DNA of 64,000 nucleotides from a virus. Position 1 is the stretch's first letter, and every line of letters begins with the position of its first letter. The stretch lies in IMG/VR virus record IMGVR_UViG_3300021492_000072; one strand, given 5' to 3'. The position numbers and the translations under genes were made by a program. Shown one piece after another: positions 86 through 16,866 of the stretch. The notes under the pieces are model-generated. The model had not been told where the DNA came from, made no database searches, and saw nothing but the letters and a program-made list of their open reading frames with translations.

Positions 86-200
86 TCTAACCTCCCTATA
101 ACTCATCATTATCAAAATAAGCCCTCTTTGGCACTATTTATATAACGCATAGCTTGGAGTAGTCACTAAAATTTTTTAACTCCTCTTGAATGACTAAGCG

Positions 201-753: not shown

Positions 754-763
754 CCTACCTCCT

Positions 764-1719: not shown

Positions 1720-1749
1720 TCCGTACTACCTCCTATGACATCAGTCAAA

Positions 1750-2376: not shown

Positions 2377-2390
2377 GTAAGCGAATTATT

Positions 2391-3020
2391 TCATCCAACC
2401 CCCTTCCTGTTTTTACTCTTTGTCACGTGATTGTTAAGGAACCGCTCTATATGTTTCGCGCTAACTCTAACCACCCATAGCCTACCTGCGGGTGACTTAA
2501 GAACATTGGTGATATCTGTTATTATTTTGTTGTAAAGACTGCCTCTTTGTACGTACGTTGTTCTCACACCGTTCCTTCGAAGCTTGATACACTTATACTT
2601 TGTGGACGCTTCTACTATAACGTCCCCGTAGTGACCTTTTACATCAACATGAATTCCATGTGGAGTAATTCCATCCAAACTGAATGATCCTGTTCGCACG
2701 ATTTGACGTACCTGCCTTCGCCCCTCAGCTTCCCTCTTCCACCTCTCATGTGATACTTTATACGATTCAAGAAAGGCTTTCACTAATTCACACCCAGTCT
2801 GTGTCGGGCGTATTTCAGCAAGGCCCTCCTTTAGTAAGTAGGACAGGGTGTGGTTTATTGCCCATGGCATTTCCAACTGTTTATCATCAATTTGCTTTTG
2901 TACATAACTAGTGTACATGCACTTCAAGGTAGAAGCGGAGACCCACATTTTGCCCGGTCCACGATATAGAAAAGGCCCTGCCTCACTCAACTTTTTTAGC
3001 AGGCGAATTCCTTTTGACAT
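2391..3020 (-). CDS. Hypothetical protein, paralog family A (copy 2 of 3)
   Basis: Visible alignment to 764..1357 and 4246..4887. Confidence 0.85.
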   Translation of the reverse strand: MSKGIRLLKKLSEAGPFLYRGPGKMWVSASTLKCMYTSYVQKQIDDKQLEMPWAINHTLSYLLKEGLAEIRPTQTGCELVKAFLESYKVSHERWKREAEGRRQVRQIVRTGSFSLDGITPHGIHVDVKGHYGDVIVEASTKYKCIKLRRNGVRTTYVQRGSLYNKIITDITNVLKSPAGRLWVVRVSAKHIERFLNNHVTKSKNRKGVG

Positions 3021-3048
3021 ATTAGATCAGACTCTCCACACTCAATGT

Positions 3049-3234
3049 TTACTCTTTGTCACCCTCTACTGTAAGTTTAACTCGCACTTCTCTGGGCAGT
3101 TCAGCATTCCTTTTTACGTATACTACACCTGTTACCTCTTCAGACTCGATGTTAAACCTGTGGTACCTTTTTGTATCCCTCTCATATACCGCTTTTACTT
3201 CTACAAAGTCTTTTCTACCCATCTTCTTGTTCAC
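3049..3234 (-). CDS. Small beta-rich hypothetical protein
   Basis: GGAGGTG SD, co-oriented. Confidence 0.7.
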   Translation of the reverse strand: MNKKMGRKDFVEVKAVYERDTKRYHRFNIESEEVTGVVYVKRNAELPREVRVKLTVEGDKE

Positions 3235-3403
3235 CTCCTATTTTTTCCTTCTTTGTTGTTATAGTTACTTTAAACGCACAACCACACCTTTCGCATTTGT
3301 AGGTATGAATCTCAACCTGTTCATAACCCTGACCATCATCTATTACCTCAGGTGAGAACTCGTCCTCTCTTGCCCTCGCCCCACATTCAGGACAATGTTC
3401 CAT
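3215..3403 (-). CDS. Zinc-ribbon protein
   Basis: CPECG ... CERCG; ATG at 3403 after GGGGGTGA SD (ORF track extends to 3526). Confidence 0.75.
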   Translation of the reverse strand: MEHCPECGARAREDEFSPEVIDDGQGYEQVEIHTYKCERCGCAFKVTITTKKEKIGGEQEDG

Positions 3404-3573
3404 TTTCTCACCCCCTATCGACTTTCTCTTTCTCCTCTTTATAGCACTCATAACACCACGCGTAGATGACGTCCTCTTTTCCTGTAAGTCCTTACTCCCA
3501 CAATCGCTGTATATCTCGGGCATCACCTATAGTAACTATACCAGGAGCTTCCTCTGACATCGTGCTTCACCTT

Positions 3574-3780
3574 TCATTTCTTTAGTGCGTGTTGGTTGCA
3601 TATATGTCGGATCAAGGTCACATTACCAAATGGTGTTACTACCTCACATACCAAACACCCACATGGAGCTACCCTTAAACGTGCAGGGAACTCAACTACA
3701 TATTCAGCGTCCTTAAAGATAGCTCTCAGCTCCTCACTATGCTTTACATCATCTCTGTCCCAAACAGTAAACGTTGGCAT
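3574..3780 (-). CDS. Small Cys/His-containing hypothetical protein
   Basis: AGGAGGT SD; PCGC...HICxxH. Confidence 0.7.
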   Translation of the reverse strand: MPTFTVWDRDDVKHSEELRAIFKDAEYVVEFPARLRVAPCGCLVCEVVTPFGNVTLIRHICNQHALKK

Positions 3781-3856
3781 TTCCTCTTACCTCCTAACAT
3801 TTTAAAATTAAATTTTTTTAAATTAAAAAATTAGCCCACACGCACTTCATGTGCTC

Positions 3857-4171
3857 CTACCCATACTTCTCCTCATAGTATTCATATAAATCTTGCATAG
3901 CACTACAAATCCCTTCTGGTAAGTAATCATCCGGAAATTCATCCCTCTCAATAACCTCGTCATACAGTTTTGTTAAACTATCCCTGTCCTTTACCCACTC
4001 ATCTCTTAGTCTCTTAACTAACCTCATCATATGTGGATCTTTTACAGACTCCTTCTTCAGTTCTTCATATATTGTGTCGATTTCATCATACCTAGCTAGC
4101 GTATAAAAGCGGCTATCCTTGTCTAGGTTACATATGAAGCTTTCTAACCTTTCCCAACCTTTACCCATCAA
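3857..4171 (-). CDS. Acidic hypothetical protein
   Basis: AGGAGGTG SD. Confidence 0.75.
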   Translation of the reverse strand: MMGKGWERLESFICNLDKDSRFYTLARYDEIDTIYEELKKESVKDPHMMRLVKRLRDEWVKDRDSLTKLYDEVIERDEFPDDYLPEGICSAMQDLYEYYEEKYG

Positions 4172-4245
4172 CCACCTCCTACATCTGGAAATAACAGGAT
4201 GGAGTTATTTCAATTTTCTTCCTTAACTTGAACAACTCGCTTATT

Positions 4246-4887
4246 TTAGGGGCCGCCGCCCTTTAACGTATCCTTCGGTCTGAGGTAACGTTCTAAACAC
4301 CCAACTCCAGTTCTTACCAGCCACAACCTTCCTTTGGGCGACCTAAGAGTATTGTTGATATCGTTTATCAACTTATTGTAGAGCTTTCCCGCTCCCACGA
4401 ACGACACCACGTTTCCTCTTTGTAACTTCACATAACGCCCGAATTCGAACGCTGTAACCTTTACATAACGCCCGTGTGTAAGCGTTGTAGCCTTCACATC
4501 TTCGTTATAGTAACCGAAAATAACGATGTTATACTTACGTTTAGTAATCTTATCCAACTCAAACTTACTTCTTTGCACAATGGACCGCATTCGCCTCCGT
4601 TCCTTAGTTATCTCACGTCTCCTCATTTCTTCCATTTCATACGCTCCTAGCACACGACTCGCAAATTCATACCCCGCGTGTGTCGGTTTGAGTTGAACGT
4701 AACCGTTCTTTATTAAATATATCAGTGCTGCTCCAATAGACTCCGGCATTTTTCTTCTCCCGTTCACGCTTCCAAACAGAAAGTCATGATCCATGCACTT
4801 CAAGTGTAGTGTGGAGACCTTGTTTGACCCCACACGCACAATCTTGTTATTCTTCAACTTTCGAATTTCCTTAAGGAGTTCTTTCAT
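4246..4887 (-). CDS. Hypothetical protein, paralog family A (copy 3 of 3)
   Basis: Alignment to the other two copies; short internal duplication GRYVK. Confidence 0.85.
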   Translation of the reverse strand: MKELLKEIRKLKNNKIVRVGSNKVSTLHLKCMDHDFLFGSVNGRRKMPESIGAALIYLIKNGYVQLKPTHAGYEFASRVLGAYEMEEMRRREITKERRRMRSIVQRSKFELDKITKRKYNIVIFGYYNEDVKATTLTHGRYVKVTAFEFGRYVKLQRGNVVSFVGAGKLYNKLINDINNTLRSPKGRLWLVRTGVGCLERYLRPKDTLKGGGP

Positions 4888-4932
4888 TCCTGCCCCCTGT
4901 ATTTTAAACCTAAAAGCATAGTTCCACTGAGT

Positions 4933-5163
4933 TCACGTGTCAGCTTCATCCAAAATTTGGTACAACCTATAAATGAAATTCCTGATCACCTCATCCTCTT
5001 TAGTTTCCAACGTGTCCATTAGATCCTTCATGTAGAACCGACAGACCAAATCCACTCTCCCCTCCCGAAAGCTCTCCTTTCTGACTTTATACCTAGCTGA
5101 ATTCAGATCAGTGGAGAACCGCGATACTTCCTCTACTACTTTGTTTTTTATCTGAGCGTTCAC
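4933..5163 (-). CDS. Hypothetical protein
   Basis: GTGA overlap with upstream gene. Confidence 0.7.
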   Translation of the reverse strand: MNAQIKNKVVEEVSRFSTDLNSARYKVRKESFREGRVDLVCRFYMKDLMDTLETKEDEVIRNFIYRLYQILDEADT

Positions 5164-5360
5164 TTACTACCCCCATTAGTTCGTGTCTCAACGTAGCTTT
5201 CATAAGGAGGCGTAGCTGGGGCTTCTCTAACCCTAAAGCCAGCCTCTTCAAAAACCTTATACAACTCCTGCCGGTTCAGTATCACATCGTCCAAATCCGA
5301 GTCAGCAAACAAATGGATTTGGACGTCACCTTTCTCAAGTATGAAGTATTTCTCACTCAT
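5160..5360 (-). CDS. Hypothetical protein
   Basis: Tightly packed in array. Confidence 0.7.
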   Translation of the reverse strand: MSEKYFILEKGDVQIHLFADSDLDDVILNRQELYKVFEEAGFRVREAPATPPYESYVETRTNGGSK

Positions 5361-5362
5361 CT

Positions 5363-5560
5363 TTACCCCTCTTTTTTATATATTCCATCTTTGCACGACC
5401 CTTCTTCCTTTTGGTCCACGACCACTACTGAACAACACGGGCACGTCCACGCCGTCCATGGCTGATGTTCATCTACCTCAACCACGCCACCTTCTTGACA
5501 GATGACGCAGTCAGGATTATCGCACTCAATCCTAATCACTTTTTTATCTCCTTCCTCCAT
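5363..5560 (-). CDS. Cys-rich putative metal-binding protein
   Basis: CDNPDCxxC ... CPCC. Confidence 0.65.
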   Translation of the reverse strand: MEEGDKKVIRIECDNPDCVICQEGGVVEVDEHQPWTAWTCPCCSVVVVDQKEEGSCKDGIYKKEG

Positions 5561-5591
5561 CTTTCCTTACATCATTGACCCAGAATGAACT

Positions 5592-5939
5592 TCATATATG
5601 TAAACGCCCACGCGTTGATTTCCTTTTCATCGATAATTCATGCCCATTCTCATCTAACAGGCTGATCACATCACCTAAATGAAACTTCACCTCATCCCCC
5701 CGCTTTACGCCTAACGTGATGGGATCTAAAGGTTCATTATCTAGATACCCATACCCATAAGTGCCATCTACCTTTGTCACACGAACCCACATCCTTTCCC
5801 CATTGTCACCTTTTTCATCCGTGAAAATCAGCTTCACCCAGTATCCCGGCTTCACTTTCAACAACTCTTTCCTCGTAGGGAGGTCGAACGTCTGTAAAAT
5901 CGGGGGTCGCCGGATGAAGTACTTCTTTGCGGTCGACAT
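5592..5939 (-). CDS. DUF2314/YegJ-like protein
   Basis: GERMWVRV ... GYLDNEP ... GDEVKF motif; GGAGGTG SD. Confidence 0.65.
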   Translation of the reverse strand: MSTAKKYFIRRPPILQTFDLPTRKELLKVKPGYWVKLIFTDEKGDNGERMWVRVTKVDGTYGYGYLDNEPLDPITLGVKRGDEVKFHLGDVISLLDENGHELSMKRKSTRGRLHI

Positions 5940-5950
5940 AATTACACCTC

Positions 5951-6292
5951 CTAAGGGATCTGGTATTCAATTTTTGCTCCACAAACACGGCAGTATTTCC
6001 CACCTTCGTCGACTAAGACCTTACACTTAGGGCAGTACGTGTAGAGGTCGCCATATATACGATACTTCACCCAAGTAGTATCTTCATACCCAACTGCTAG
6101 AAACACAGCACAACTACCAGTGCGGTTATCTCTTACGTTAAAAGCCTTAACTATCACATCCAGCCCTGGTACCTGTAACTCACCTTCTGCTGGTGTTACC
6201 GCCGCGTCGACGTTATATACAGACTTCAGCCCTCCAGTTATTTCGTCAGAGAGGGCATTCTTTCTGACCCTAAGCTTAAGCAAATACTTCAT
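5951..6292 (-). CDS. Hypothetical protein with C-terminal zinc ribbon
   Basis: YCPKC ... KYCRVCG. Confidence 0.75.
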   Translation of the reverse strand: MKYLLKLRVRKNALSDEITGGLKSVYNVDAAVTPAEGELQVPGLDVIVKAFNVRDNRTGSCAVFLAVGYEDTTWVKYRIYGDLYTYCPKCKVLVDEGGKYCRVCGAKIEYQIP

Positions 6293-6325
6293 TGCTGTCT
6301 CCTTTACGCACCCTTGCTTTCTTAG

Positions 6326-6399
6326 CTGTGCGTCGCTTTTTGACTGTGCGTCGCTTTTTGACTGTGCGTCGCTTTTAACCCTTACTTTTGACTATGCGT
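6326..6399. repeat. 18-bp tandem repeat CTGTGCGTCGCTTTTTGA (two full copies, one partial, one degenerate)
   Basis: Read directly; intergenic. Confidence 0.9.
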
Positions 6400-6466
6400 T
6401 ACTAAGGGCCTAGGCATTTTCAACCCCACCCTGGGGGCAAAAACCAGGGGGGCCTGGCGCCTGTGT

Positions 6467-6784
6467 TCAGCCACGTGACACCTCATCAGGTTTGACCCGC
6501 GTGATTTGCTTGAAGACCCCTGTCCACGGTTTATCTCCTGCCTGCGAATAGCGTGCAGGCATCAAGCTCAAAGTCAGGTTCTTGACAAGCAGCTCTGCTT
6601 CCTTCTTCGGCCCTTCAAGTGAGAGCCCGAGGTTGAGACATCCCGGTCCTTCTACCAACTTGAGGCCTTTTACTTTGATGTCCTTGAAGTGTGTTTGGTT
6701 CATGATTGTCTCAGCAATCTCATGCCAGCGTGGTCTTAGGTCCTTCAACGTCGCGATCACATAAACATGTTGCTCTTCGCCCAT
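6467..6784 (-). CDS. Hypothetical protein
   Basis: AAAGGAGG SD preceded by a perfect 11-bp hairpin (CAGGGCAGTCT/AGACTGCCCTG). Confidence 0.75.
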   Translation of the reverse strand: MGEEQHVYVIATLKDLRPRWHEIAETIMNQTHFKDIKVKGLKLVEGPGCLNLGLSLEGPKKEAELLVKNLTLSLMPARYSQAGDKPWTGVFKQITRVKPDEVSRG

Positions 6785-6841
6785 TTGTTCCTCCTTTGGC
6801 AGACAGGGCAGTCTGTTTAGACTGCCCTGGACAGAAGGCTA

Positions 6842-7183
6842 CTACTCTTGTGCATCGTAGTAAGCCTTCTGCATTTCCGCCTTTAATGTGGACATCTTTA
6901 CTTTCTCTTGTACTCTCTTCCACAACTCAGGCTTCTCCGCTTTGAACATGAGTATGCAGACCTTTCTGAACCCAGTGGGCCCCAGTTTCTTGAAGACCTC
7001 AGGACCTTTGTCCTTGATGATACGAGCTGCCAGATCTCTCATATAAGTCGTGTGGCCCAACTGAGACTGTCCGTTCTTCTTCTCAAGCGCTGCGTCCACA
7101 AGAGACTTCAAATCCACAGTAGCTTCCTTCTCAGATTCTTTTACGTTCACAATAGATTTCTTTGCCTCCGCCATCTTCTTCAC
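6842..7183 (-). CDS. Hypothetical protein, paralog family B (likely ATG at 7174)
   Basis: Aligns with 11534..11842 (LKxLxxxAL ... GH...MR ... L(G/R)PxGF). Confidence 0.8.
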   Translation of the reverse strand: MKKMAEAKKSIVNVKESEKEATVDLKSLVDAALEKKNGQSQLGHTTYMRDLAARIIKDKGPEVFKKLGPTGFRKVCILMFKAEKPELWKRVQEKVKMSTLKAEMQKAYYDAQE

Positions 7184-7228
7184 CTCCTTTCACAGCCTTG
7201 ATTTGGACTGAAAGTCCAAGCTGTTCCA

Positions 7229-7268
7229 AACGTTTTAAAAAATAAAATTTTATATAAAAATAAAATTA
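7229..7268. promoter_or_regulatory. ~40-bp AT-rich element, near-identical to 7774-7813 and related to 3796-3833
   Basis: AACGTTTTAAAAAATAAAA.TTTATATAAAA(A)TAAAATTA read directly; function inferred. Confidence 0.55.
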
Positions 7269-7275
7269 TGCCTGA

Positions 7276-7452
7276 CTACAGGTAGTAAGAACCCCAACCG
7301 TCCAAGTACTTGTTAATCCAATAAGCTAACTCCTTATCCAGTTCTTCTACACACTCTGACATCTTATCATGCCCAAGCTCTTCCAACTTTTTACACAATA
7401 ACTTCTCTAGTGCCTGATATACCTCTTCCATCTCTTCTTCCTTTATATGCAC
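7276..7452 (-). CDS. 58-aa hypothetical protein (not in ORF track)
   Basis: GAGGAGGTGA SD then GTG; open frame ending ...WINKYLDGWGSYYL*. Confidence 0.65.
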   Translation of the reverse strand: MHIKEEEMEEVYQALEKLLCKKLEELGHDKMSECVEELDKELAYWINKYLDGWGSYYL

Positions 7453-7477
7453 TCTTCTTCACCTCCTCTTAGTTTGA

Positions 7478-7768
7478 CTAGATTATCCGGTCGATCTCTT
7501 CCTCAGCGATATACAGCTCATTACCTACTATGTCCACTTCTGCTTCTACATCATAAATCACATTATAGGCCCCTTTGTTGACGCTTAACACTACATTAAC
7601 TATCTTGGATCCCTCTGGTTCGTAAGTGGTCACTTGTCGATCGTCAATCACATACTTGCCTTTGAGATCCTTAAACTCATGCAACTCCAACCACCTGATG
7701 TTTCCAGTTTCACCCAGATCATCAACTGTCTTTATCTCCCTTAGTTTGTACCCTGTCACAAACGACAC
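7478..7768 (-). CDS. Acidic hypothetical protein
   Basis: AGGAGGTG SD; true start probably GTG at 7759. Confidence 0.7.
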   Translation of the reverse strand: MSFVTGYKLREIKTVDDLGETGNIRWLELHEFKDLKGKYVIDDRQVTTYEPEGSKIVNVVLSVNKGAYNVIYDVEAEVDIVGNELYIAEEEIDRII

Positions 7769-8026
7769 CTCCTAACGTTTTAAAAAATAAAAATTTATAT
7801 AAAATAAAATTAAACCTTCACAAACAAACCAGCTCTGCTTTTCCTTTCATTACCCTGCCTGGCCTCGCCAAAGCGAGACCTAGGGCAGGGTTTTGCCAAA
7901 GTAGAATTCCGGTGCTTAACTGCTTCTACTCGAAAGTTGCTCAGCTAAGTGGGCACCCCCGAGCTCAACCCCTTGATTTTATTACAGGTGTATTTTCACA
8001 TCAACCAGAAATTTCGTGCCAACCAC

Positions 8027-8371
8027 TTACTCATCTTGTCGCTGGAACAACACTTTATTAACCACTTCCACTTCAATCCGGGTGTACCGCGCTTCCGTAA
8101 TCTGATACGCTTTCTTCCGTGGGTCTAACTTACCCCACGACTGTTCCTTATCCTTCGCCGGTTTCGGTTCGTAAGTAATCCGATGCCTCAACCAACTATA
8201 CACCTGTCGGTACAGTTTCACTCGAGGAGTTTCCGTTAGCTCTTTCAGCTCAGCGTAGTCACAAATCACTCTAGTCCAAACACAGACTGGTTTCCCTTTC
8301 AACTTCTCTAGTAACCCAGGCTCCGCTCTCACTTCCTGCATGAACTGGTTGATGATGTCCCTGTAGTCCAC
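8027..8371 (-). CDS. Hypothetical protein
   Basis: Preceded by leader hairpin + SD. Confidence 0.8.
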   Translation of the reverse strand: MDYRDIINQFMQEVRAEPGLLEKLKGKPVCVWTRVICDYAELKELTETPRVKLYRQVYSWLRHRITYEPKPAKDKEQSWGKLDPRKKAYQITEARYTRIEVEVVNKVLFQRQDE

Positions 8372-8434
8372 TTTCTCTCACCTCCTTTCCAGCCCCTGAT
8401 TAGGGACCAAATGGTTCCCGAGCTGAATGGTATC

Positions 8435-8674
8435 CTACCAACTTCCATACCTAATAAGTCCTCGATTATACAGCGACACTATTCTTTCTTTCAGTATTGG
8501 ACGTATCTTTTCCCACTGTTCATCTGGCACCTCAGAATAATCCCAACACCAGCATCCGAAAACGCGACTTTTCGCTTCCTTGAGAGGTAGACCTGTACCT
8601 TTGATGACGTCCGCAATTAAGTCTCCTGGTCTAGGATGACCTGGTGGGCAGTCCAGCTCTATCGTTTTCGGCAT
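8435..8674 (-). CDS. Conserved phage hypothetical protein
   Basis: IELDCPPGxPRPGDLI ... GLIRYGSW; leader hairpin + SD. Confidence 0.8.
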   Translation of the reverse strand: MPKTIELDCPPGHPRPGDLIADVIKGTGLPLKEAKSRVFGCWCWDYSEVPDEQWEKIRPILKERIVSLYNRGLIRYGSW

Positions 8675-8773
8675 CTCCTCTCACCTCCTTTCTGGGCCCA
8701 AATTGGAACCTCTTGGGTCCTAGGCCCATTGTATATAGTTCCTTATAGGAACTATAACGTTGCTCAATCCCCT

Positions 8774-9178
8774 CTAAGCGGGTCTCTTTATTAGTTTGAT
8801 CATATAGGTATAACCTCTTTCCCATTTGTTAACCGGTTCCTCCTTTACTAATGTCCATCCTCTGCACTCTAGTAAATCGAAGAACTCTCTCCATACTCCA
8901 ACTCCGCTCCTCTCATCACCATAGCAGTGAACCTGTAAAACCGCGCCAACCTTACATACTCTATCCACCTCACGCGCCAACTTCACACGCGCGATTTTGT
9001 CTAACACTATCAATAGTTGCCCTATGTAAACCTCATCAGTAGATTCATCCTCAACCGGAATCCGATCAGGACACCTCCACTCCACGACTCCGTCATACTT
9101 CTCGCAGTCCAAATGAATCCAGTCTGGAGTGTCCTCTACCCAATATTCTTTTGGTCCCGAACCTAGATCGAGCTTCAT
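8774..9178 (-). CDS. Short class I SAM-dependent methyltransferase-like protein
   Basis: N-terminal LDLGSG motif I, WIHLD, ExxRVCKxG. Confidence 0.6.
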   Translation of the reverse strand: MKLDLGSGPKEYWVEDTPDWIHLDCEKYDGVVEWRCPDRIPVEDESTDEVYIGQLLIVLDKIARVKLAREVDRVCKVGAVLQVHCYGDERSGVGVWREFFDLLECRGWTLVKEEPVNKWERGYTYMIKLIKRPA

Positions 9179-9219
9179 TCCCTCACCTCCTTTCCAGCCT
9201 TAGATTAGGACCTTTGGTC

Positions 9220-9651
9220 CTAGGCTGTTAAGTCCATTCTAATATGTGTTGTACTCAAATCCGAATCCAAATGTAACTGAAACGTCACTCTCTTCACCTG
9301 TTCCGGTTTTACACGTTTGACATACAGCCCATAACCAGTACGTATTTCAATACTATACCTGTCAAGTACTGCTGCTAACGGTTTATCACTCCAGTCAATC
9401 TTTTGCTCCTCAGGCGGAAGTTGTTCTAGTATTTCACTACCATCGTCGCAATCGAAGTAGACTTCTGTAGGCTCAACCTCAAACTCTACTACCCAAGAAG
9501 GTTCATTTAGTAGTGGGAACTCAATTGCTGAAACGAGTACAGCATCATGTCCGTTAGCAGTATCAGAACTAGGCGATACCCCATCTTTCAGGATCTGTTG
9601 TAGGCTCATCATAGAACATGGTACAGTTGTGAACAACCTCACATTACTCAC
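9220..9651 (-). CDS. Hypothetical protein, possibly degenerate ADP-ribosyltransferase fold (likely GTG at 9642)
   Basis: LFTT...LQQILKDGVSP...VLVS...VVEFEV...VKPEQV echoes the LYHxT..I..GLxP pattern without the His. Confidence 0.45.
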   Translation of the reverse strand: MSNVRLFTTVPCSMMSLQQILKDGVSPSSDTANGHDAVLVSAIEFPLLNEPSWVVEFEVEPTEVYFDCDDGSEILEQLPPEEQKIDWSDKPLAAVLDRYSIEIRTGYGLYVKRVKPEQVKRVTFQLHLDSDLSTTHIRMDLTA

Positions 9652-9779
9652 CTCCTCTCTGACCTCTTTAAGAACGTGACCGTTATTACCCTACGATCTC
9701 TGAAGAACCAAACCATGAAGTAATGCACGTTCTTAATGCCTACAACTACCGGACCGATTTCTTGGTATTTCTCTAACAT
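9648..9779 (-). CDS. 43-aa hypothetical protein (not in ORF track)
   Basis: AAAGGAGGTGA SD, ATG at 9779, fills the gap exactly. Confidence 0.6.
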   Translation of the reverse strand: MLEKYQEIGPVVVGIKNVHYFMVWFFRDRRVITVTFLKRSERR

Positions 9780-9793
9780 CTTTTCACCTCCTT

Positions 9794-10051
9794 TCAAATC
9801 GGCATTACTCCAACCTTTATGATCCTTTTAGGCCGGAGCAGGACCGCTCTTACCTTCACAAAATTATTGTTATCCAACCAGTACCTCTCTTCGAAACTCT
9901 TCACTACGTGCCCATGAACCTCATAGAGGTCCACGTCCTCGCCATACCACTGCTCCTGTACCACCCTCGCTTCCTCTAATGTACTGGTACAGAGCAAGGT
10001 ACCGTTATAGGCTCGTAGTGGCGAGCCCGATTCTTGCACCCTAAACGGCAT
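9794..10051 (-). CDS. Hypothetical protein
   Basis: AAGGAGG SD. Confidence 0.7.
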   Translation of the reverse strand: MPFRVQESGSPLRAYNGTLLCTSTLEEARVVQEQWYGEDVDLYEVHGHVVKSFEERYWLDNNNFVKVRAVLLRPKRIIKVGVMPI

Positions 10052-10061
10052 ACTTCCTCCT

Positions 10062-10319
10062 TCACTTCTCCTTTACTCGTCTCCATGATTCAATCGGGTC
10101 CTTTACTACCAACCTGGCCCTCCCTGGGCACTGCTCGAAGAACTTTACTGCTTCTTCCAACCCATCTTCGCTTCCATCCGTGAAGTTCTCTACTTTCTGG
10201 ACCCCGTCTTTAATGTAGAAAACCGACGCGACCACTTCCTCAATCCGGATTGGAGCGCATTCGGGGCATATCTCCGCCCAATCCGGAACCGGTTTTCCAC
10301 ATTTCTTACACTTCTTCAT
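10062..10319 (-). CDS. Zinc-ribbon protein
   Basis: CKKCG ... CPEC; leader hairpin + SD. Confidence 0.8.
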   Translation of the reverse strand: MKKCKKCGKPVPDWAEICPECAPIRIEEVVASVFYIKDGVQKVENFTDGSEDGLEEAVKFFEQCPGRARLVVKDPIESWRRVKEK

Positions 10320-10369
10320 CTCCTCACCCCCTTTCGTGGCTCAGATTCTTTTACCGGAGCCACAACGGT

Positions 10370-10894
10370 TTATTCATTTCCATACAATAGACTCTCTATT
10401 ACCTCTAGTGTTCCAACGTCCACTTCAGAATCAGGTTTATCTTTCCAGTCGCAAGTGAATTCACCCCATCTCTGATACATATCCCCGATTCTAGTTCCCG
10501 GTAGTACTCTCGGTTCCTCTTTCCTCCTTGGACGCCCTCTTTTCTTTCCTTTGAGGGCTTCCACGATCAGCTTTCCTAACGGGTCTTTCATGTCGATGTT
10601 CAACTCTTCCTTCGGTGTCTCTTTCGGTCTCATGTTCAATACTTCCAACGCGCCCCAGATACCGAAGTTCTGTATGAACTGCAACCTCATCATCCGCTTC
10701 GTCCTTCCTCTGAACCGAATCCTTTGAACCGGTCCCAATGGCCACCTCGACTTGGAAGCCTTCGTTTCTAAGGCCTCCTCAATCAGGTCAGCAAGGTCAG
10801 GTTCCATTGTAGGTGCAGGCTCAGGTTCCAGCTCGACGATTACTTTGAATTCTCTGCCGTCTTTCTTTCGAATTAAGTATTCCTGGCGCTCCAT
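10370..10894 (-). CDS. Hypothetical protein with two LxxLIxEAL helices and an AT-hook-like KRGRPR
   Basis: Seen in translation; leader hairpin + SD. Confidence 0.8.
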   Translation of the reverse strand: MERQEYLIRKKDGREFKVIVELEPEPAPTMEPDLADLIEEALETKASKSRWPLGPVQRIRFRGRTKRMMRLQFIQNFGIWGALEVLNMRPKETPKEELNIDMKDPLGKLIVEALKGKKRGRPRRKEEPRVLPGTRIGDMYQRWGEFTCDWKDKPDSEVDVGTLEVIESLLYGNE

Positions 10895-10950
10895 CCTTCT
10901 TTCACCTCCTTTCTGGCCCTAGATTAGACCTCAATAGTCCTGGGCCAGTT

Positions 10951-11124
10951 TCAGTCCTCTTTAGACTTTAACCAATCCAGTCTCAGTTCATAGACTGTAG
11001 TATCATTCTCCACTAGACAAGAACCTCCGTGAATGAACACGATTTCTCCTTCCACCCCATTATAATGGTCATCAGGGTGGCCTACAACAATAACCCTATC
11101 ACCTACTTTAAAGCCTTCATTCAT
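10951..11124 (-). CDS. 57-aa KOW/SH3-like protein (not in ORF track)
   Basis: MNEGFKVGDRVIVVGHP...GVEGEIV; overlaps the stop of the upstream gene. Confidence 0.6.
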   Translation of the reverse strand: MNEGFKVGDRVIVVGHPDDHYNGVEGEIVFIHGGSCLVENDTTVYELRLDWLKSKED

Positions 11125-11410
11125 CTTCCTCCATCTCCTCCTCTTCTTCTATACCAGTCTCGATCCCGAACATTGACACAACCCAATCACGTGCTTCCAA
11201 GGACGCGCAGTCGAGATCACTAAGGCTCTTGACGCAAACTTTTGATGACTCAGTGGTTCTCTGATAGATCAGGTTGTCGATTACGAAACCCTTCTTACCG
11301 AAGAAGAGCCGCGCGCTGATTCGCTCCCCTCGTGTGGTCTCAACACCTATATCTACGGCGTGAGTACCCTCGAAGGGGCCATCACCCGCTTCTATGAACC
11401 TTAACATCAT
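11117..11410 (-). CDS. Hypothetical protein with acidic tail
   Basis: Leader hairpin + SD. Confidence 0.8.
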   Translation of the reverse strand: MMLRFIEAGDGPFEGTHAVDIGVETTRGERISARLFFGKKGFVIDNLIYQRTTESSKVCVKSLSDLDCASLEARDWVVSMFGIETGIEEEEEMEEDE

Positions 11411-11494
11411 CTTCCTCCACCTCCTTTCTGACCCTAGATTGGCCTGGATGGGCCTGGGCCAGTCGCAATCCCCTTTAACGGGTCATTCTTTGTT

Positions 11495-11533
11495 GGGCCC
11501 CTTTACCTTTCCCCACCGGGGCCCGAGGTGGGG
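11495..11533 (-). other. Predicted H-type RNA pseudoknot
   Basis: Minus strand CCCCACC-UC-GGGCCCC-GGUGGGG-AAAGGUAAA-GGGGCCC: two perfect 7-bp stems. Confidence 0.7.
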
Positions 11534-11842
11534 TTATTTGGCTCTAGTGTCTATCCAGATCTTGTTGACCTTGTCGTACTGGAAGCCGTGGGAGTTCTTG
11601 TAGGCGTTTAACTGGCAGGCAAACTCATGAGAGTTGCCTACCTTCCCCACTAGGTCAGGGTGGACCGCCGCGAAGATCATCTTAAACCCCGCGGGGCGGA
11701 GTTGTCGGATGATCTCTCTGCCGTGCTCGCGCTCGATCTTAGCCAACAAGGCCCGCATGGCCGAAATGTGGCCTCCGCCTTGGCCTTGTTGCTGGTCGAG
11801 AGCCTGACTGATGAGTTCTTTCAGGTTTGACATCTTCTTCAC
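11534..11842 (-). CDS. Hypothetical protein, paralog family B (likely ATG at 11833); first gene of leftward array
   Basis: Aligns with 6842..7183. Confidence 0.8.
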   Translation of the reverse strand: MKKMSNLKELISQALDQQQGQGGGHISAMRALLAKIEREHGREIIRQLRPAGFKMIFAAVHPDLVGKVGNSHEFACQLNAYKNSHGFQYDKVNKIWIDTRAK

Positions 11843-11889
11843 CTCCTTCCTGCCCTGATTGGCCTAGACTGAGATCCAGGCCTGGGCTA

Positions 11890-12290
11890 GTCTGTCTCTT
11901 ATCTGACTTCTTACTTTTATATTTATTTTTATTTAATTTAATTTTAATATATTTTCGCTTAGTACGCGTTAACCGAGCTGTTAGAAAAAGTCACGTTAAG
12001 GAACCAATACGCGTTAACCGATACGCGCTAAGAGAGCCGTTAGTCACGTTCGCGCATGAGCCTGTTACGTTCTATCAGCTAAGTCACGCCCAAATAGTAC
12101 GCCTACAAATAACAAATTGGTACGCTTAGAAACTACCAGTCACACAATTCCGTAACTAGGCAAAAAGCACGTTCACAATAAAATCAAGGGTTTGAGGTCG
12201 AATGGCGTCTATAAGGTTGGCCAACTTTTGAGTAGAAAGGGTTAGTCACGCAAAAATTCCATAAGGAGTAAGACTTGACATTGGGTATGA
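11890..12290. promoter_or_regulatory. Divergent non-coding control region with AT tract and short repeats
   Basis: AT tract ~11915-11955; AGTCAC x5; TACGCGTTAACCGA x2; transcription diverges here. Confidence 0.6.
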
Positions 12291-12294
12291 GTAA

Positions 12295-13317
12295 ATGGAA
12301 AAGTGTGGTATGGTTGTAAAGGTAAAGAACGAAGATAGGTTCTTCGATTCTCTAGCTAAATACCTGTTCTTCAAAGAGTTAAAAAGAGCATACGAGATCA
12401 AGGTTGATGAAAAAGGACGTCCTATTACATTTATTACTAAAAGAGTCAAAGGTAGGCTTAGACACATCCCAATCCCGTTAGAAAGGTTAAGAGAGGAAAA
12501 GCTAAGTGATGCTGGTAAAAGATTGATTGAGATGAATACTATGAGATTGGTAGGACAAAGTGCTAAGATAAACGAGGGTGGGAAGAGCTTTCTCAGGATT
12601 GGAATGAAAGATTTAATAGGTGCGTTGAGTTTTGAAGGAAAGATAGGATCCAGGTTGAGTGAGGTCTGTAAAGCACCGGGAGCGATGGCGTGTGCTGCTA
12701 ATATGATAGGACTGGATTCGTATGATGTGCGTAAGGTGGAATTAAAGAAGGGAGGTAATATAGATTTAGATGCCAAGATATGGAAAGGTGACGTTTCATT
12801 AGGTTTTGTAGGAAGTATTGAGAAAGAAAAAGATAAGTTGGTGATGTATCCTAGGAGGTTGGAGAAGGTTAAAGGTGGTGATGTGGATTGGGCTAAAAGA
12901 GTAGCGCGGGTGTTTAAGAGGAGTGGAGTAGATGAGGTTAAGGTAGCTGCTAGGGGAAAGGCGGATCATGTGTTATTTAGCATGCTGGGGGCGGAGTTTG
13001 AGAATCCAAGAGAGGCGAAGTTATTCACTGCGCTGGCTGTTAGTAAGTTAAAGGGAATGAAATTAGCCCGTGAGTGGCAAGTAAAGAAAATCATGATAAC
13101 TCTAGCGAAAGAACAAACGCAAAGTTTACCCAGGATTTTGGAAATATTTAGAGATACAATGTTCCCTAGAAGGCCGGGGTTCCCCACTACTGGAGAGGCG
13201 CCAGGTACTTATAAAGACTTCAAAAGGCTGTTAGAGTTAATATTCGGCAAGGGAGTCAGCAAGTACAGAATCCCTATGAAGGGAAATAAGCTATTAGACC
13301 TTTTGGTGAGAGGTTAA
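12295..13317 (+). CDS. Basic protein with possible degenerate GNAT fold and a weak copy of the cargo-like tag
   Basis: ARVFKRSGVDEVKVAA...LFSMLGAEF resembles GNAT motif A/B; FITKRVKGRLRHIPI near N-terminus. Confidence 0.55.
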   Translation: MEKCGMVVKVKNEDRFFDSLAKYLFFKELKRAYEIKVDEKGRPITFITKRVKGRLRHIPIPLERLREEKLSDAGKRLIEMNTMRLVGQSAKINEGGKSFLRIGMKDLIGALSFEGKIGSRLSEVCKAPGAMACAANMIGLDSYDVRKVELKKGGNIDLDAKIWKGDVSLGFVGSIEKEKDKLVMYPRRLEKVKGGDVDWAKRVARVFKRSGVDEVKVAARGKADHVLFSMLGAEFENPREAKLFTALAVSKLKGMKLAREWQVKKIMITLAKEQTQSLPRILEIFRDTMFPRRPGFPTTGEAPGTYKDFKRLLELIFGKGVSKYRIPMKGNKLLDLLVRG

Positions 13318-13318
13318 G

Positions 13319-14284
13319 GTGTTAGAGTTTATACCACTTAGGAATAGGCAAGGTAAACTATTCTGGATACATGTATCGGAGTTTGAGCCGTGGAGGATTA
13401 AAGATCCCAAGACGTTACAACATATTCTGAACTTATACTTTGGATCCATTACGGTGGATAAGCTGGGAAGGTCTATGCTCACCAGTGATGGTTACGTCTT
13501 TCTGAAAGAAACCTTACCTGATTACCTCTGGAACGAAATAAAGCGTAAGAAGTACAAAAATACTATTGAGGTCTTTAGAGAGGCATCTCATCATCCAAAG
13601 GCTATACACCAGCTTGCTAATGCAATGGGTGATGTTTCCTACTTATCCGACTTCGCGATTAGGAAGGACTACATATTTGCCGAAGGTGGGATGCGTAGGT
13701 TATATAAGGCGGGGATTAGAATCCCATTTGAACCTTTATCCCCAAAATGGATGGTGAGTTCACAGGTTCCAAGAGTTCCAGTGGTCTTTGGGCCCAAGCT
13801 ATTTGGCAGAGAGATGTCAGGAAAGCACCTACAAAAGATATATCACAATTTACTGGTTGAGAGTGGACAAAAGGCTTTTATTGTCAGGCCAGGTCCGAGT
13901 AGTTTCATCACATATGCGAAGCTGGGTGCGAATTATCCAACTAAGAGCGGTAGGAAGTCGCTTGTAAAAGAGATGCAGAGATTAATCCCATACATACGTA
14001 AGTCCGGGCAAGAAAGGGAAACTGATATGCTCATGCATGTTTTAGAAAGATGGAGTGAGGGGGCGGATAATCTACAAAAGCTATATAGGGACACCTTGGA
14101 GTTGGTCAAAAAGAAGGAAATACCAGTTAGTTTGTTCCAGAGGTTTTGGTACCGAATGAGCGCCTTCGAACGTGAACTAAAGTTAGAGATAACCCCCGCT
14201 GTAAAACGTATGTTAAAAGAGGGTACTGTTTCATTCAGTGTAAAACGTTGGTTACGCGCGCCATCTAGTACGCGGTTTCAATAG
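13319..14284 (+). CDS. Basic protein with possible degenerate GNAT fold
   Basis: GREMSGKHL...SGQKAFIVRP...TYAKLGANY. Confidence 0.55.
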   Translation: MLEFIPLRNRQGKLFWIHVSEFEPWRIKDPKTLQHILNLYFGSITVDKLGRSMLTSDGYVFLKETLPDYLWNEIKRKKYKNTIEVFREASHHPKAIHQLANAMGDVSYLSDFAIRKDYIFAEGGMRRLYKAGIRIPFEPLSPKWMVSSQVPRVPVVFGPKLFGREMSGKHLQKIYHNLLVESGQKAFIVRPGPSSFITYAKLGANYPTKSGRKSLVKEMQRLIPYIRKSGQERETDMLMHVLERWSEGADNLQKLYRDTLELVKKKEIPVSLFQRFWYRMSAFERELKLEITPAVKRMLKEGTVSFSVKRWLRAPSSTRFQ

Positions 14285-15388
14285 CTTTCTAGGAATCCTC
14301 TTACGATATTTTATACAAATTTCAATAGTGTTCTTGATTTCTTCTTCAAGAGTAATTGAAGGCTTGTAACCAAGGCTGTCTAAGATTCCTTTCTCTACTT
14401 TGTATAAGTCAATGTCTTCTCTTTCAACTCTTGGATTGGGATAGTACTTCATCTTTGTAAAAATACCAAATTCCTCCATTGAGATTCTTTTAACAGTTCT
14501 AGCCAAGTCTTCCAGCCTATAGACTTCCATTAACTGATTAACTAGCCTATACTCTCCACGTTTGGGTGGGTTCTCTAATAACAAACGAAGGCATTGAATG
14601 GAGTCTCTTAAAGGTAGGAAGCCTCTCTTTTGATTCCCCGAACCATAGACGGTTAATGAGACATCTTTAGTCGCAGCTTCGGCGCATAGACGATTGAGAT
14701 AAGTCCCAAACAGTTCATCTGCGTCAAAGCGTGTGAATAAGAGTTCGTCTTTCCCATCTATTTCCTCGGTTAATACACCAAAGACTACACCTTGCATCAC
14801 GTCAGTTACTGTTAATCCCCAGCAGTTGCACGCTAACTCTAGATAAAGAGAGCCTAAGATTTTTGTATCGTGGTAGAAAGAGATTCCTCTACGGGGGTAT
14901 GGTAGGACTTCCTTAAACGGTCCGTAGCTGATTTCCAATCCTTTTTCTGAAATAGGGATGTTAGACGCCGCGTACTCTCCCAAAGTTCCGATTACTATTA
15001 CATGCACATCCATTTTTAATTCTCGTAGAGCCCAAACAAGGTTTAAAGGTCCAATAGTGTTGGTGAACGTAGTTTCAAAGCAGCTATCACGGTCCTTCAT
15101 TGAGTACGGCGCACTAGGTTGATGTGCTAAGTATACAATAGCGTCTGGATCGACTCTACGGAGTACGTCTAAGAAGTGAGGCCAATCAGTTACGTCACAG
15201 ACTTCGAAGCCAATTGATAAGGCGTGAACCCTGTCTTCTACTGACGCAATTGGGGTTATAGACGTTGCGACCTTCCTTCTGAAGAGGTTGTCGATACCAT
15301 AAACCTCGAACCCGCGCGCTACTAAATTCTGCGCTAATGCAAATCCTATAAAACCATCTATACCTGCGATTAGAACCTTACCACGCAT
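14252..15388 (-). CDS. sqdB: UDP-sulfoquinovose synthase (SQD1/SqdB/Agl3 family, extended SDR)
   Basis: GIDGFIG, DNLFRR, QPSAPYSM, GTLGEY, FYHDTK, WGLxxTDxxQGVVFG, TRFDxDxxFGTxLNR, LTVYGxGxQxRGF, NPRVE. Confidence 0.9.
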   Translation of the reverse strand: MRGKVLIAGIDGFIGFALAQNLVARGFEVYGIDNLFRRKVATSITPIASVEDRVHALSIGFEVCDVTDWPHFLDVLRRVDPDAIVYLAHQPSAPYSMKDRDSCFETTFTNTIGPLNLVWALRELKMDVHVIVIGTLGEYAASNIPISEKGLEISYGPFKEVLPYPRRGISFYHDTKILGSLYLELACNCWGLTVTDVMQGVVFGVLTEEIDGKDELLFTRFDADELFGTYLNRLCAEAATKDVSLTVYGSGNQKRGFLPLRDSIQCLRLLLENPPKRGEYRLVNQLMEVYRLEDLARTVKRISMEEFGIFTKMKYYPNPRVEREDIDLYKVEKGILDSLGYKPSITLEEEIKNTIEICIKYRKRIPRKLLKPRTRWRA

Positions 15389-15462
15389 TTTCCTATACCT
15401 CCTAGCGGGATCCCGCGCATATTGCTAAAATATGGCGCAATAACCATATGATATGAAGCATG

Positions 15463-16866
15463 TTATAGCTCAATCACGGCGTATCCACCCCTCCCCATGC
15501 CCTCAAAGTAGAGTCGAATCGCTTCCCTTGTGAACCACCAGGCCATTACGCAGTCATCATAGGTGCTATAGGGATAACTTAGCACTTCACGTTTCCATGC
15601 GCAAAAAGAACACTCACAACCAGGGTCATGGCTCCAATAGGGGATGTGCCACATATTATTATCTAATTCAACTCTTAAAGACGGGATGCCAACATTGACA
15701 TAGTGCTTTTGCGTACCTGTGTAATAAGACTTTATGGGGAGCTTCCTTAGTTCACCCACCCAATCAAATAGCATTTGCTGGGTAGCGTTGGACTCAACTA
15801 GGATCACTTCTGGTTTATACTTCTCGTACTCCCTGATCAGTAATCTCGCGACTTCAGGTGCGGCTGCTTTGACTCTTATTATGTTAATCGGCCACCGCAT
15901 ACGTGTTTCTGCGTGGACGCCCGTCGTGAATAAAACTGAGTAGTCCTTACCATGACCACCAGAGATATCAACTCCCATGTATTTTCTGACATATGGTTCC
16001 GTAAGGCTTGTATACTCGGGTGGGTTGGAACCGGGAGTGAGAGGCCAATCATGTCTCTGTTTGAAGCACTCTCTAGAGAATAACACAGTCTCCACCCGAA
16101 TGGGCTGCATCCGGAAACCTTTTTCAAACGCCAGTGGATCATCCTTCCACTTGTCGTACAGCTTCTCTCGTGGCCATACTTGAGGCCATAAAGGATCAAA
16201 GTTCTCATTTATCTTCCATATCTTACGACACCAACCTTTCTTTCTTAGAAGGTCAGCGTATACATCTTCCTCTGCCCATGTAGTGCCGATGACCACAACT
16301 TGGTGACCTTGTGGTTCTAGTGTGTTCATCCAGACGTCAAAGAACGCTTCTTTTACCTTTCTTATCATACCTTTTGTAGCTGCTGTCCTGTTGTCACATA
16401 TGTCATCGCAAATAAGGAGGTCACTTCTTCCTCCAGTACCAGTCGCAATTATCCCTTTACCTTCTACTGTTGCGTCTCTGAGCGCCAAGCTTCTCTCCAC
16501 AAAGATTCTTTCTTTAGTCCAGTACCTAGCTTTAGATGGTCTTACATGAGGGAAAATAGCACGGTACTTTGGTGAAAAAAGCAGTGTTTGAGTGATTGCT
16601 GATAAAAGTTCCTTCGCCTTTTCGTTTGAGTTCGCAACTATCTTGATCCTGATATTAGTGTTGAGTCCGATCCTCCAGCATGGGTAGGCTATGGAGACAA
16701 CCGAACTTTTCCCGTGTGCTCTTGGAGAAAGGATGAGAATTTTCCGTTTAGTTTCCAAGAGTGTACACCATTGTTTATGGAGGTCCGCTAGGGGGAAGTC
16801 GAAGACGAAGGTTAGGAATGATGCGAAACTTTCGCGGCACAATCTCCGGAGTGTTTTGATGTTCAC
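15463..16866 (-). CDS. terL: Terminase large subunit
   Basis: Walker A PRAHGKS, Walker B LLICDD, motif III VIGT, RNase H-like GVDIS ... DDCVMA. Confidence 0.95.
   Translation of the reverse strand: MNIKTLRRLCRESFASFLTFVFDFPLADLHKQWCTLLETKRKILILSPRAHGKSSVVSIAYPCWRIGLNTNIRIKIVANSNEKAKELLSAITQTLLFSPKYRAIFPHVRPSKARYWTKERIFVERSLALRDATVEGKGIIATGTGGRSDLLICDDICDNRTAATKGMIRKVKEAFFDVWMNTLEPQGHQVVVIGTTWAEEDVYADLLRKKGWCRKIWKINENFDPLWPQVWPREKLYDKWKDDPLAFEKGFRMQPIRVETVLFSRECFKQRHDWPLTPGSNPPEYTSLTEPYVRKYMGVDISGGHGKDYSVLFTTGVHAETRMRWPINIIRVKAAAPEVARLLIREYEKYKPEVILVESNATQQMLFDWVGELRKLPIKSYYTGTQKHYVNVGIPSLRVELDNNMWHIPYWSHDPGCECSFCAWKREVLSYPYSTYDDCVMAWWFTREAIRLYFEGMGRGGYAVIEL

Follow-up and report, generated by a model that had tools for sequence, protein, structure and literature searches.

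The window analysed here is the whole 64-kb (64,000-nucleotide) stretch of IMG/VR record IMGVR_UViG_3300021492_000072, an uncultured tailed virus with terminase, portal-MuF, and glycosyltransferase genes. On its minus strand lie eight bulged hairpins, each joined directly to the Shine–Dalgarno (SD) sequence of a gene. We call hairpin plus SD the module. The modules form a family of cis-acting structured leaders on the sense strand of the early transcripts, and their structure is under selection on the RNA sense strand. Comparison with related contigs directly supports a further role, in which the modules would also act as recombination junctions resembling the promoter early stem-loops (PeSLs) of T4-type phages. 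That the module-led genes are early we infer from their position beside a divergent control region and from gene type.

A leader hairpin with an AAUC bulge, fused to the Shine–Dalgarno sequence

The module is a two-tier hairpin. From the 5′ end, an outer stem of 3–8 bp is followed by 0–2 unpaired nt, an inner stem of 4–9 bp with a loop of 3–6 nt, and a 3′ bulge of ~4–7 nt with the consensus AAUC-N-A, after which the outer stem closes with its return arm. All full copies have an asymmetric internal loop (0–2 nt on the 5′ side, 4–7 nt on the 3′ side), and the helices of a module sum to 9–15 bp (median 12). In every copy, the stem is followed by an extended SD, (G/A)AAGGAGGUGA, of 12–13 nt and then by the start codon. 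The outer stem ends 0–3 nt before AAGGAGG; the earlier note had put the distance from stem to SD at 0–2 nt. Taken position by position, the bulges of 47 distinct full copies have A (46/47), A (47/47), U (47/47), C (41/47), any nucleotide, and A (35/47). The AAU is unpaired and invariant, while the paired positions vary. The two inner pairs adjoining the bulge are almost always G-C, and the SD is invariant in the same 47 copies.

A covariance model of 52 positions and 13 pairs (R1) was built from ten copies, one of them copy E of the window and the other nine taken from related contigs, and the entire 64 kb was searched on both strands with filters off. R1 returns exactly eight copies, all on the minus strand between 7179 and 11893, with scores from 71.4 to 23.4 bits (E 5.6e-19 to 5.6e-5). 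The next-best match in the window (16.7 bits) is an SD alone. Direct reading and R1 thus find the eight bulged hairpins where the earlier note had placed them. Each of the copies, A–H, folds singly into the two-tier hairpin, with z scores of −2.05 to −4.67 against dinucleotide shuffles. The coordinates below span hairpin plus SD.

Copy A (11838–11889; R1 23.4 bits, E 5.6e-5; −20.7 kcal/mol, z −3.24) leads the first gene after an AT-rich promoter-like tract. Its outer stem GCCC/GGGC is extendable via one A·A mismatch, the 5′ bulge is an A, and the 9-bp inner stem carries the loop CUCA; the bulge AAUCA is followed by AGGAAGGAGGUGA and by ATG at 11833. Copy B (11417–11462; 38.7 bits; z −2.33) has the outer stem CUGGCCC/GGGUCAG, whose one G·U is G-C in relatives, then a 5′ bulge A, the inner stem GGCC/GGCC, the bulge AAUCUA, the SD, and ATG at 11410. 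A CRISPR-repeat-like unit directly precedes it. Copy C (10902–10948; 53.6 bits; z −2.43) combines the outer stem CUGGCCC/GGGCCAG with the inner stem GGACU/GGUCU, which contains two G·U pairs; the bulge AAUCUA and the SD lead to ATG at 10894. Copy D (10322–10363; 26.9 bits, E 5.2e-6; z −4.67) is degenerate. It retains only the outer stem GUGGCUC/GAGCCAC and AAUCU and has no real inner stem, as the earlier note had remarked of the copy at 10324. Its SD is AAAGGGGGUGA, with ATG at 10319, and its orthologues are found in the relatives L087, L092, L098, and L101.

The best-scoring copy is E (9183–9227; 71.4 bits; z −4.16), with outer stem CAGCCU/AGGCUG, inner stem AGGACC/GGUCCU, loop AAA, bulge AAUCUA, SD, and ATG at 9178. 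The stop codon of the upstream gene (9222–9220) lies within its 5′ arm. In copy F (8681–8728; 42.6 bits; z −2.69), the outer stem UGGGCC/GGCCCA is extendable, the inner stem GGACCC/GGUUCC has one C·U, and the bulge is AAUU(UG), followed by the SD and ATG at 8674. Copy G (8378–8428; 57.4 bits; z −2.05) has the outer stem CAGCUC/GGGCUG, an imperfect inner stem, the bulge (U)AAUCAG, the SD, and GTG at 8371; in a 97%-identical relative, three positions differ and the inner stem is a perfect 7 bp. Copy H (7180–7225; 40.7 bits; z −3.61) has the outer stem ACAGCU/GGCUGU, the inner stem UGGACU/AGUCCA, the bulge AAUCAA, the SD, and ATG at 7174. An AT-rich promoter-like repeat lies immediately 5′ of it.

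In 244 kb of related loci, R1 yields 93 matches, 61 of them distinct, on about 15 contigs. The copies used in the covariation and strand tests are related, so the tests are not fully independent. In the model-fitted alignment of the 61 copies, standard pairs occupy 93.5% of pair cells, compared with 69.7 ± 1.1% when the 3′ partners are shuffled. In twelve of the 13 pairs both partners have changed, the covariation score is 0.526 versus 0.184 in shuffles, and sliding the partners by 1–3 columns leaves at most 56% of the cells paired. Because the R1 alignment is fitted to the structure, two model-blind checks were added. A plain MAFFT alignment was made of 29 copies; despite visible errors of register, 75.9% of the cells are paired versus 70.1 ± 1.2% shuffled, and the covariation score is 0.372 versus 0.272, with slid values of at most 55%; the signal is weaker, yet above both controls. 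When the AAUC is held unpaired, the two-tier layout appears in 30/30 hairpin-bearing sequences parsed (D-type copies excluded), and unconstrained folds of these sequences mostly agree with it.

At single loci, orthologues differ by compensatory changes that keep the pairing. At locus H, a C-G pair of the outer stem is replaced by U-A in L089 and L103. Also in L103, CUGACC/GGUCAG takes the place of the outer stem CUGGCC/GGCCAG. At locus B, the inner stem GGCC/GGCC is replaced by AGGUACCC/GGGUACCU in L087 and L106. There are 58 G·U cells as compared with 10 A·C cells, indicating that the fold is selected on the mRNA-sense strand. In addition, the sense hairpin is more stable than its reverse complement in 32/47 copies (mean −16.2 versus −14.9 kcal/mol, p 0.002). 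The covariation that the earlier note had described is therefore borne out, as are its statements that pairing is kept while stems and loops differ, that the AAUC-type bulge persists, and that G·U pairs favor the mRNA strand.

The position of the modules relative to genes is regular. In the 7180–11890 block, 6/6 genes that start more than 40 nt past the previous stop codon carry a module (B–G), and two more module-led genes (A and H) follow AT-rich promoter-like tracts. Six genes of the block have no module. Four of them (starts at 11124, 10051, ~9778, and 9651) either overlap the gene upstream or begin close behind it. A fifth, at 7452, begins 25 nt past the preceding stop codon, and the sixth, at 7768, has a bare SD directly after the AT-rich tract 7785–7825. 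The module is a fixed junction of hairpin and SD on genes that need their own initiation. The hairpin leaves the SD unsequestered, with a mean unpaired probability of 0.59 compared with 0.49 at hairpin-less leaders; the gain is not significant (p 0.17).

Cassette boundaries and distribution among viruses

IMG/VR record G001 (= G002), with ~97% identity to the window, is a relative 131 kb long, 91% complete, and labelled provirus. Twelve related contigs, mosaic and with 70–96% identity to the window, came from a pattern scan of JGI metagenomes. When nine related contigs are compared with the window, the BLAST blocks break repeatedly at modules. Of the internal block boundaries, 23/42 fall within 15 nt of a module, as do 9/20 distinct breakpoint clusters, compared with 12.2% expected by position (p 2.9e-4). 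The remaining boundaries lie mostly at plain SDs or gene ends.

The exchanges take several forms. In L087, the two genes between B and C are swapped for unrelated sequence behind a B-type outer stem with a new inner stem. In L106, a duplicated leader plus hairpin of 118 nt flanks an extra cassette, and L103 and L109 have an extra small gene between two E-like modules. The 79-codon gene at 8435–8674 is missing in four strains, where the upstream flank of F is joined to the downstream gene of G via one hairpin. This junction hairpin differs per strain: it is pure F in L092 and G-like in L089, joins an F 5′ arm to an E-like remainder in L103, and has yet another mixed form in L098. The crossover points vary between strains within about 50 nt, in the 5′ arm, the 3′ half, or the SD. 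Therefore, homologous exchange between paralogous modules, rather than a fixed site-specific cut, probably accounts for them. In accordance, no Phage_integrase domain is found in G001 or G004 (a second virus, described below), with the control positive in 14/14 genomes. Because about 50 nt are repeated, the modules are also the places of cassette gain, loss, and replacement between strains. The enriched boundaries and the chimeric hairpins bear out the earlier suggestion of a cassette-shuffling handle.

The copies of the window are confined to ~4.7 kb, as the earlier note had stated. In G001, the modules are likewise confined to the matching 4.7 kb, save one degenerate D-like copy before a Ku-domain gene (G001:C1:22936–22990; L158 2936–2990), which has the outer stem UGGCCC/GGGCCA, an AAUUA bulge, and the SD, and no inner stem. 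The open reading frames (ORFs) of the loci L096, L110, and L124 are without a match in the window, and contig L110 has two full module copies and a weaker third match. Family-level relatives (TerL identity 54–59%) differ in gene order and have zero modules in the region searched, within ±10 kb of TerL.

The module recurs in a virus of quite different make-up. G004 is a 47-kb virus fragment (29% complete) with a GC content of 37.6%, versus 44.9% in the present virus. It carries seven modules at one end, each preceding a small ORF. The stems are quite different (e.g. CUUGACC/GGUCAAG), while the bulge, AAAUCUA or AAUCC, and the SD are the same. Over its 47 kb, G004 shares with G001 only three weakly similar proteins (21–34% identity). 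Two are a radical-SAM enzyme and a metallopeptidase, and the third and weakest match overlaps an SMC/RecF-like ATPase gene; none of the three is an RNA-binding protein or a nuclease (G004 being 29% complete). In L166 (G004:C1:43100–47312), several module-led small genes are paralogous, their products beginning M-R/A-I/L-Y-K/R-I-V/I, and 25 nt ahead of two hairpins, TAACCTTACCTTGACCGGGTTACG, are repeated.

The earlier note had not recognized the motif, and a search of the window against Rfam 15 at gathering thresholds indeed gives zero matches. At E ≤ 1 over 6700–12400, the sole match on a hairpin is the L31-Firmicutes leader on copy A (22.3 bits versus a gathering score of 33.3; E 0.25). Stricter patterns in IMG/VR find this lineage and G004 only, L179 being a chance match. 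The matches of a loose-pattern scan are mostly single chance ones. Single hairpins with the same layout occur in unrelated IMG/VR contigs at L065 3170–3225, L073 10542–10590, and L077 (~140–185), with the bulge AAUCA(C/U) and then AAAGGAGGUGA, one copy per locus. L065 and L073 come from 250-kb contigs, and the L073 hairpin scores 22 bits with R1. These three may be chance matches or distant relatives. R1 run on 100 cellular genomes related to an archaeal metagenome-assembled genome (MAG) finds no module beyond the viral contig of that MAG. Two single 27-bit matches turn up in the cellular genomes; the one inspected (G032) is apparently a chance match inside apparent coding sequence.

Source virus, host and neighboring features

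Megablast of the window against 50,697 phage records gives zero nucleotide matches. TerL is at most 26% identical to that of known phages, and its distant relatives are bacteriophages throughout. The stretch is contained in 24 sequencing runs, 20 labelled as hydrothermal-vent metagenomes and 4 as marine, marine-sediment, or sediment metagenomes; none of the runs listed is an RNA run. Ten neighboring early ORFs were scanned, and none has a significant Pfam or PHROG family match; weak zinc-ribbon and PHROG matches below threshold are all that appear. The left arm of G001 (L157, L158) encodes NrdD, a QueD gene split by a LAGLIDADG endonuclease domain, and a Ku protein. It also encodes an SMC/RecF-like ATPase with a calcineurin-like phosphoesterase, which we read as SbcCD- or Rad50/Mre11-like, and a DUF2201 metallopeptidase with an AAA ATPase.

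Binning placed one related contig in the "uncultured archaeon" MAG mentioned above. This MAG has one weak RNase III-like match (37 bits). McrA was not found in it, and a search for spacer-like matches found none. NrdD look-alikes were considered as a clue to the host and dropped, being viral. Two solitary CRISPR-repeat-like units in the early transcript (11462–11493 and 8759–8793, minus-strand sense) offer a clue to the host. They match Rfam CRISPR-DR8 with 25.4 and 20.3 bits (gathering score 39) and are conserved in related contigs. The first ends in GGGGAUUGCGAC, the 3′ end of Thermus-type repeats, and abuts hairpin B; the second ends in GGGGAUUGAGCAAC, 30 nt upstream of hairpin F. Arrays matching the units are absent from the 101 genomes searched. 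The units may be RNA anti-CRISPRs of the Racr type (PMC10651486) or Cas6-dependent processing sites.

Several other features lie around the block. AT-rich repeated tracts, TTTATATAAA...TTTTATTTTTTAAAACGTT, occur on the minus strand at 7232–7270 and 7785–7825 and, in looser form, at 3790–3831 and 11900–11960. One stands immediately 5′ of hairpin H, and another adjoins a bare SD in the same way. The tracts look promoter-like and may be of a bacterial, an archaeal TATA/BRE, or a virus-specific type. Between the leftward early genes and a rightward gene at 12295, a divergent control region (11980–12290) contains about six copies of CGTGACT and three of TTAACGCGTA, with an operator- or iteron-like look. 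A gene-free gap of ~235 nt (7790–8026) holds the GC-rich bulged hairpin CCCUGCC...GGCAGGG (7850–7895). The 72-nt piece at 7912–7983 recurs inverted near the early promoter region in L103 and G005:C1 and may represent either a mobile segment or a small RNA. On the minus strand at 6797–6833, a perfect 11-bp hairpin, CCAGGGCAGUCU...AGACUGCCCUG, stands immediately ahead of the SD that serves the gene with its start at 6784; it has no AAUC bulge, and 6788–6796 is a recurrent block boundary between strains. In positions 1–20000, sigma-70-like promoter sites are not enriched (21 versus 29.9 ± 5.4 in shuffles). TATA-like octamers are not enriched either (12 versus 8.8), and intrinsic terminators show no convincing enrichment.

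Known systems, a possible processing site and its rivals

Three known systems come close to the module, which belongs to none of them. The early RNase III sites of phage T7 (R0.3 to R1.3, with R1.1 as the model substrate) are, like the module, repeated hairpins in an early polycistronic transcript, with an asymmetric internal loop that parts an upper from a lower stem. A single cut would in both cases fall on the 3′ side, leaving a protective 3′ hairpin on one product and a downstream mRNA that starts just before the ribosome-binding site (RBS) (PMC1540722 for the principle). The module differs in its helices of 9–15 bp rather than ~20 bp, in its fixed AAUC bulge, and in the SD fused at 0–3 nt. 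The T7 analogy drawn in the earlier note therefore fits the shape and fails on helix length, and an RNase III gene was not found in the virus.

The start-associated sequences (SAS) of Cluster K mycobacteriophages are conserved asymmetric sequences a few bases before the starts of a subset of non-structural genes. About half of them have an imperfect inverted repeat upstream at a variable spacing (extended SAS, ESAS), and a role in translation initiation is suspected (PMC3203893). The SAS is the 13-bp GGGATAGGAGCCC, 3–8 bp before start codons, and the inverted-repeat arms of the ESAS are 17 bp (PMC3203893). The layout is that of the module, an inverted repeat followed by a conserved start-proximal sequence on a subset of non-structural genes. 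However, the sequences are unrelated (GGGATAGGAGCCC versus AAAGGAGGUGA in the module), the host group is different, and the 17-bp arms are conserved in sequence, whereas the arms of the module are shorter and covary. The SAS/ESAS report describes no conserved bulge, covariation, or cassette boundaries (PMC3203893).

The PeSL of T4-type phages consists of a sigma-70-like promoter and a terminator stem-loop (PMC2839356, PMC4122927). Like the modules, PeSLs are short repeats that flank small ORFan genes in a hyperplastic early region, with the insertions, deletions, and replacements that separate close relatives starting and ending at the repeats. Unlike them, the module lacks both promoter hexamers and a U-tract; it is a leader hairpin plus SD with covariation at the RNA level. 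Among the promoter-like sites listed, none lies inside a module. The hairpins are followed by AAAGGAGG, not by a T-run, and no sense-strand terminator-like site falls on any module; the plus-strand terminator-like sites that overlap F (8714–8728) and A (11877–11894) are opposite to the leftward transcripts. The shuffling part of the earlier PeSL analogy is thus retained, with boundaries at the repeats, and its promoter and terminator parts fall away. We class the module as a cis-regulatory element, leader or intercistronic, with a second role as a shuffling junction.

The earlier note had offered a processing site, a regulator binding site, or a shuffling handle. Shuffling has the comparative support given above, and the covariation, the G·U bias, and the invariant AAU speak for a function of the RNA on the sense strand. 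The best reading, in our view, is an RNA leader read by a trans-acting factor, most likely as a T7-like processing and stabilizing site. Tentatively, the AAUC bulge can be seen as a putative endoribonuclease site with the shape of a T7 RNase III site, by analogy. The unpaired, conserved AAUC would be recognized and cleaved by an endoribonuclease, with a single cut in the bulge as at the T7 sites. The enzyme would more likely be of host than of viral origin, because a virus that shares only three weakly similar proteins carries the same bulge. The upstream cistron would then end in the inner hairpin, protected from 3′-to-5′ exonucleases. The 5′ end of the downstream cistron would lie a few nucleotides ahead of a very strong, unstructured SD, and a ribosome bound there would stabilize this cistron. 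With such a cut and such protected ends, each cassette would be expressed independently of its neighbors. The early mRNA of Bacillus phage SP82, in work by Panganiban and Whiteley (1983) and by Hue, Cohen and Bechhofer (1995), reportedly has Bs-RNase III sites followed by a polypurine 5′ stabilizer. There, stem-loops between early genes are combined with an SD-like purine run that stabilizes the cut downstream RNA, which resembles the module as an analogy only.

Several points weigh against a processing site of this kind. To our knowledge, RNase III is lacking in most archaea, and the host may be an archaeon; in an archaeal host the RNase III reading would be much weaker for that reason. The Ribonucleas_3_3 domain was not found in G001 or G004. 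In RNase III substrates, internal loops and bulges restrict cleavage to one strand, leaving protective 3′ hairpins, and the substrates typically span about two helical turns (PMC1540722); the helices of the module, 9–15 bp in total, fall short of this. With the hairpin, SD accessibility is not significantly above that of hairpin-less leaders. Finally, the invariant bulge and the fixed distance to the SD are just as well compatible with a translational operator.

In that case, a virus- or host-encoded RNA-binding protein would recognize the AAUC bulge and the neighboring G-C pairs, and its binding beside the SD would switch all early cassettes off together, as with T4 RegA or MS2/PP7-like operators, or on. 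We regard this as possible, if rather doubtful. Invariant unpaired nucleotides next to freely covarying stems, the strict gap of 0–3 nt to the SD, the placement of the modules within one co-regulated gene block, and their restriction to genes that need de novo initiation would all suit an operator. The operators of the coat-protein and RegA type (MS2, PP7, T4) are also small hairpins with an essential unpaired base beside or over the RBS, but they occur singly and have their bulge in the loop or on the 5′ side, whereas the module has at least 8 copies and a bulge of 5–7 nt on the 3′ strand. A candidate protein is lacking among the ten scanned early ORFs, which gave no significant Pfam or PHROG matches, and G001 and G004 (29% complete) share no detectable RNA-binding protein; the same bulge in viruses with almost no common proteins would demand a host factor. 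A passive insulator of the RBS, or 5′ stabilizer, would need no dedicated factor at all. The hairpin would lock the upstream sequence and leave the SD free, and it may also stack coaxially on the SD:anti-SD helix and block 5′-to-3′ exonucleases. This fits a stem that ends 0–3 nt ahead of the 12–13-nt SD, modules that move with cassettes into new contexts, and two copies at probable transcript 5′ ends, just after AT-rich tracts. However, it leaves unexplained the invariant AAU in the bulges of 47 distinct copies from two unrelated viruses, and predicted SD accessibility is not significantly better than without a hairpin (0.59 vs 0.49, p 0.17). We consider it unlikely.

Two explanations at the DNA level are far less probable still. 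The module could be a recombination handle only, homologous like PeSL or site-specific like attC, with no function in RNA. The enrichment of boundaries at modules, the chimeric hairpins at the F/G junction in L103, L089, and L098, and the L106 cassette inserted together with a duplicated module agree with this. Yet pairing is kept through double changes and strand-biased wobbles, which sequence homology does not need. A site-specific handle is at odds with crossover points that differ between strains and with the lack of a tyrosine recombinase in G001/G004, and an attC-type handle with the absence of a GTTRRRY core from the modules. We thus give a pure DNA handle very little weight. The same holds for hairpin promoters, a DNA element for a virus-specific RNA polymerase resembling the N4 virion enzyme, which would start transcription just before each SD. 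Here the repeated hairpins in the earliest region only, each ahead of a short leader, would fit, as would the sigma-70-like sites that are not enriched (21 vs 29.9 ± 5.4) and the absence of a sigma factor from a sigma-70 domain search of the viruses. The hairpins of N4 promoters form in the template strand, however, whereas the wobble-pair bias puts the fold of the module on the sense strand. Separate AT-rich promoter-like tracts also exist, the two giant proteins of the window match beta-propeller repeats or nothing, with no polymerase match, and a search for the T7-like polymerase domain (RNA_pol) gave no match, with the control search likewise silent.

Other element types were rejected. There is no U-run after the hairpin, which rules out an intrinsic terminator, and the SD is not sequestered, which rules out an RNA thermometer. 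A pseudoknot between the bulge and downstream sequence is ruled out by the lack of a conserved GAUU. The archaeal bulge-helix-bulge (EndA) needs two 3-nt bulges on opposite strands 4 bp apart, while the module has one 3′ bulge of 4–7 nt facing 0–2 nt, and inner stems that vary from 4 to 9 bp. A K-turn (L7Ae) needs a 3-nt bulge and tandem sheared G·A pairs, and no G·A tandem occurs in the modules. An integron attC site, which calls for an IntI-type tyrosine recombinase and R″/R′ cores of the form GTTRRRY, is excluded by the lack of a Phage_integrase domain in G001 and G004, by the lack of GTTRRRY in the modules, and by the variable crossover points.

No parts of phage genomes change faster or are less well understood than the early regions with which phages take over their hosts. 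Here the locus provides a compact, strongly covarying motif absent from Rfam, with a recognition element and a fixed relation to the RBS, and the population data indicate that genes are gained and lost in units bounded by the motif. Should the bulge prove to be a site of cleavage or binding, it would point to a new RNA–protein pair in thermophile-associated viruses and would extend the idea of modular shuffling, as in the PeSLs of T4, from transcription signals to translation leaders. In that case, the module might also find use as a part for processing or insulation, one that works with short GC-rich stems. It is conceivable, though we would not count on it, that the modules represent a hitherto undescribed class of portable expression modules in viruses of vent microbes, an AAUC-bulged RNA fused to an RBS and read by a putative dedicated endonuclease or regulator, common to viruses with almost no shared proteins. 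If so, ORFan cassettes would be instantly expressible and easily recombined, and a single RNA element would tie the regulation of early genes to their turnover.

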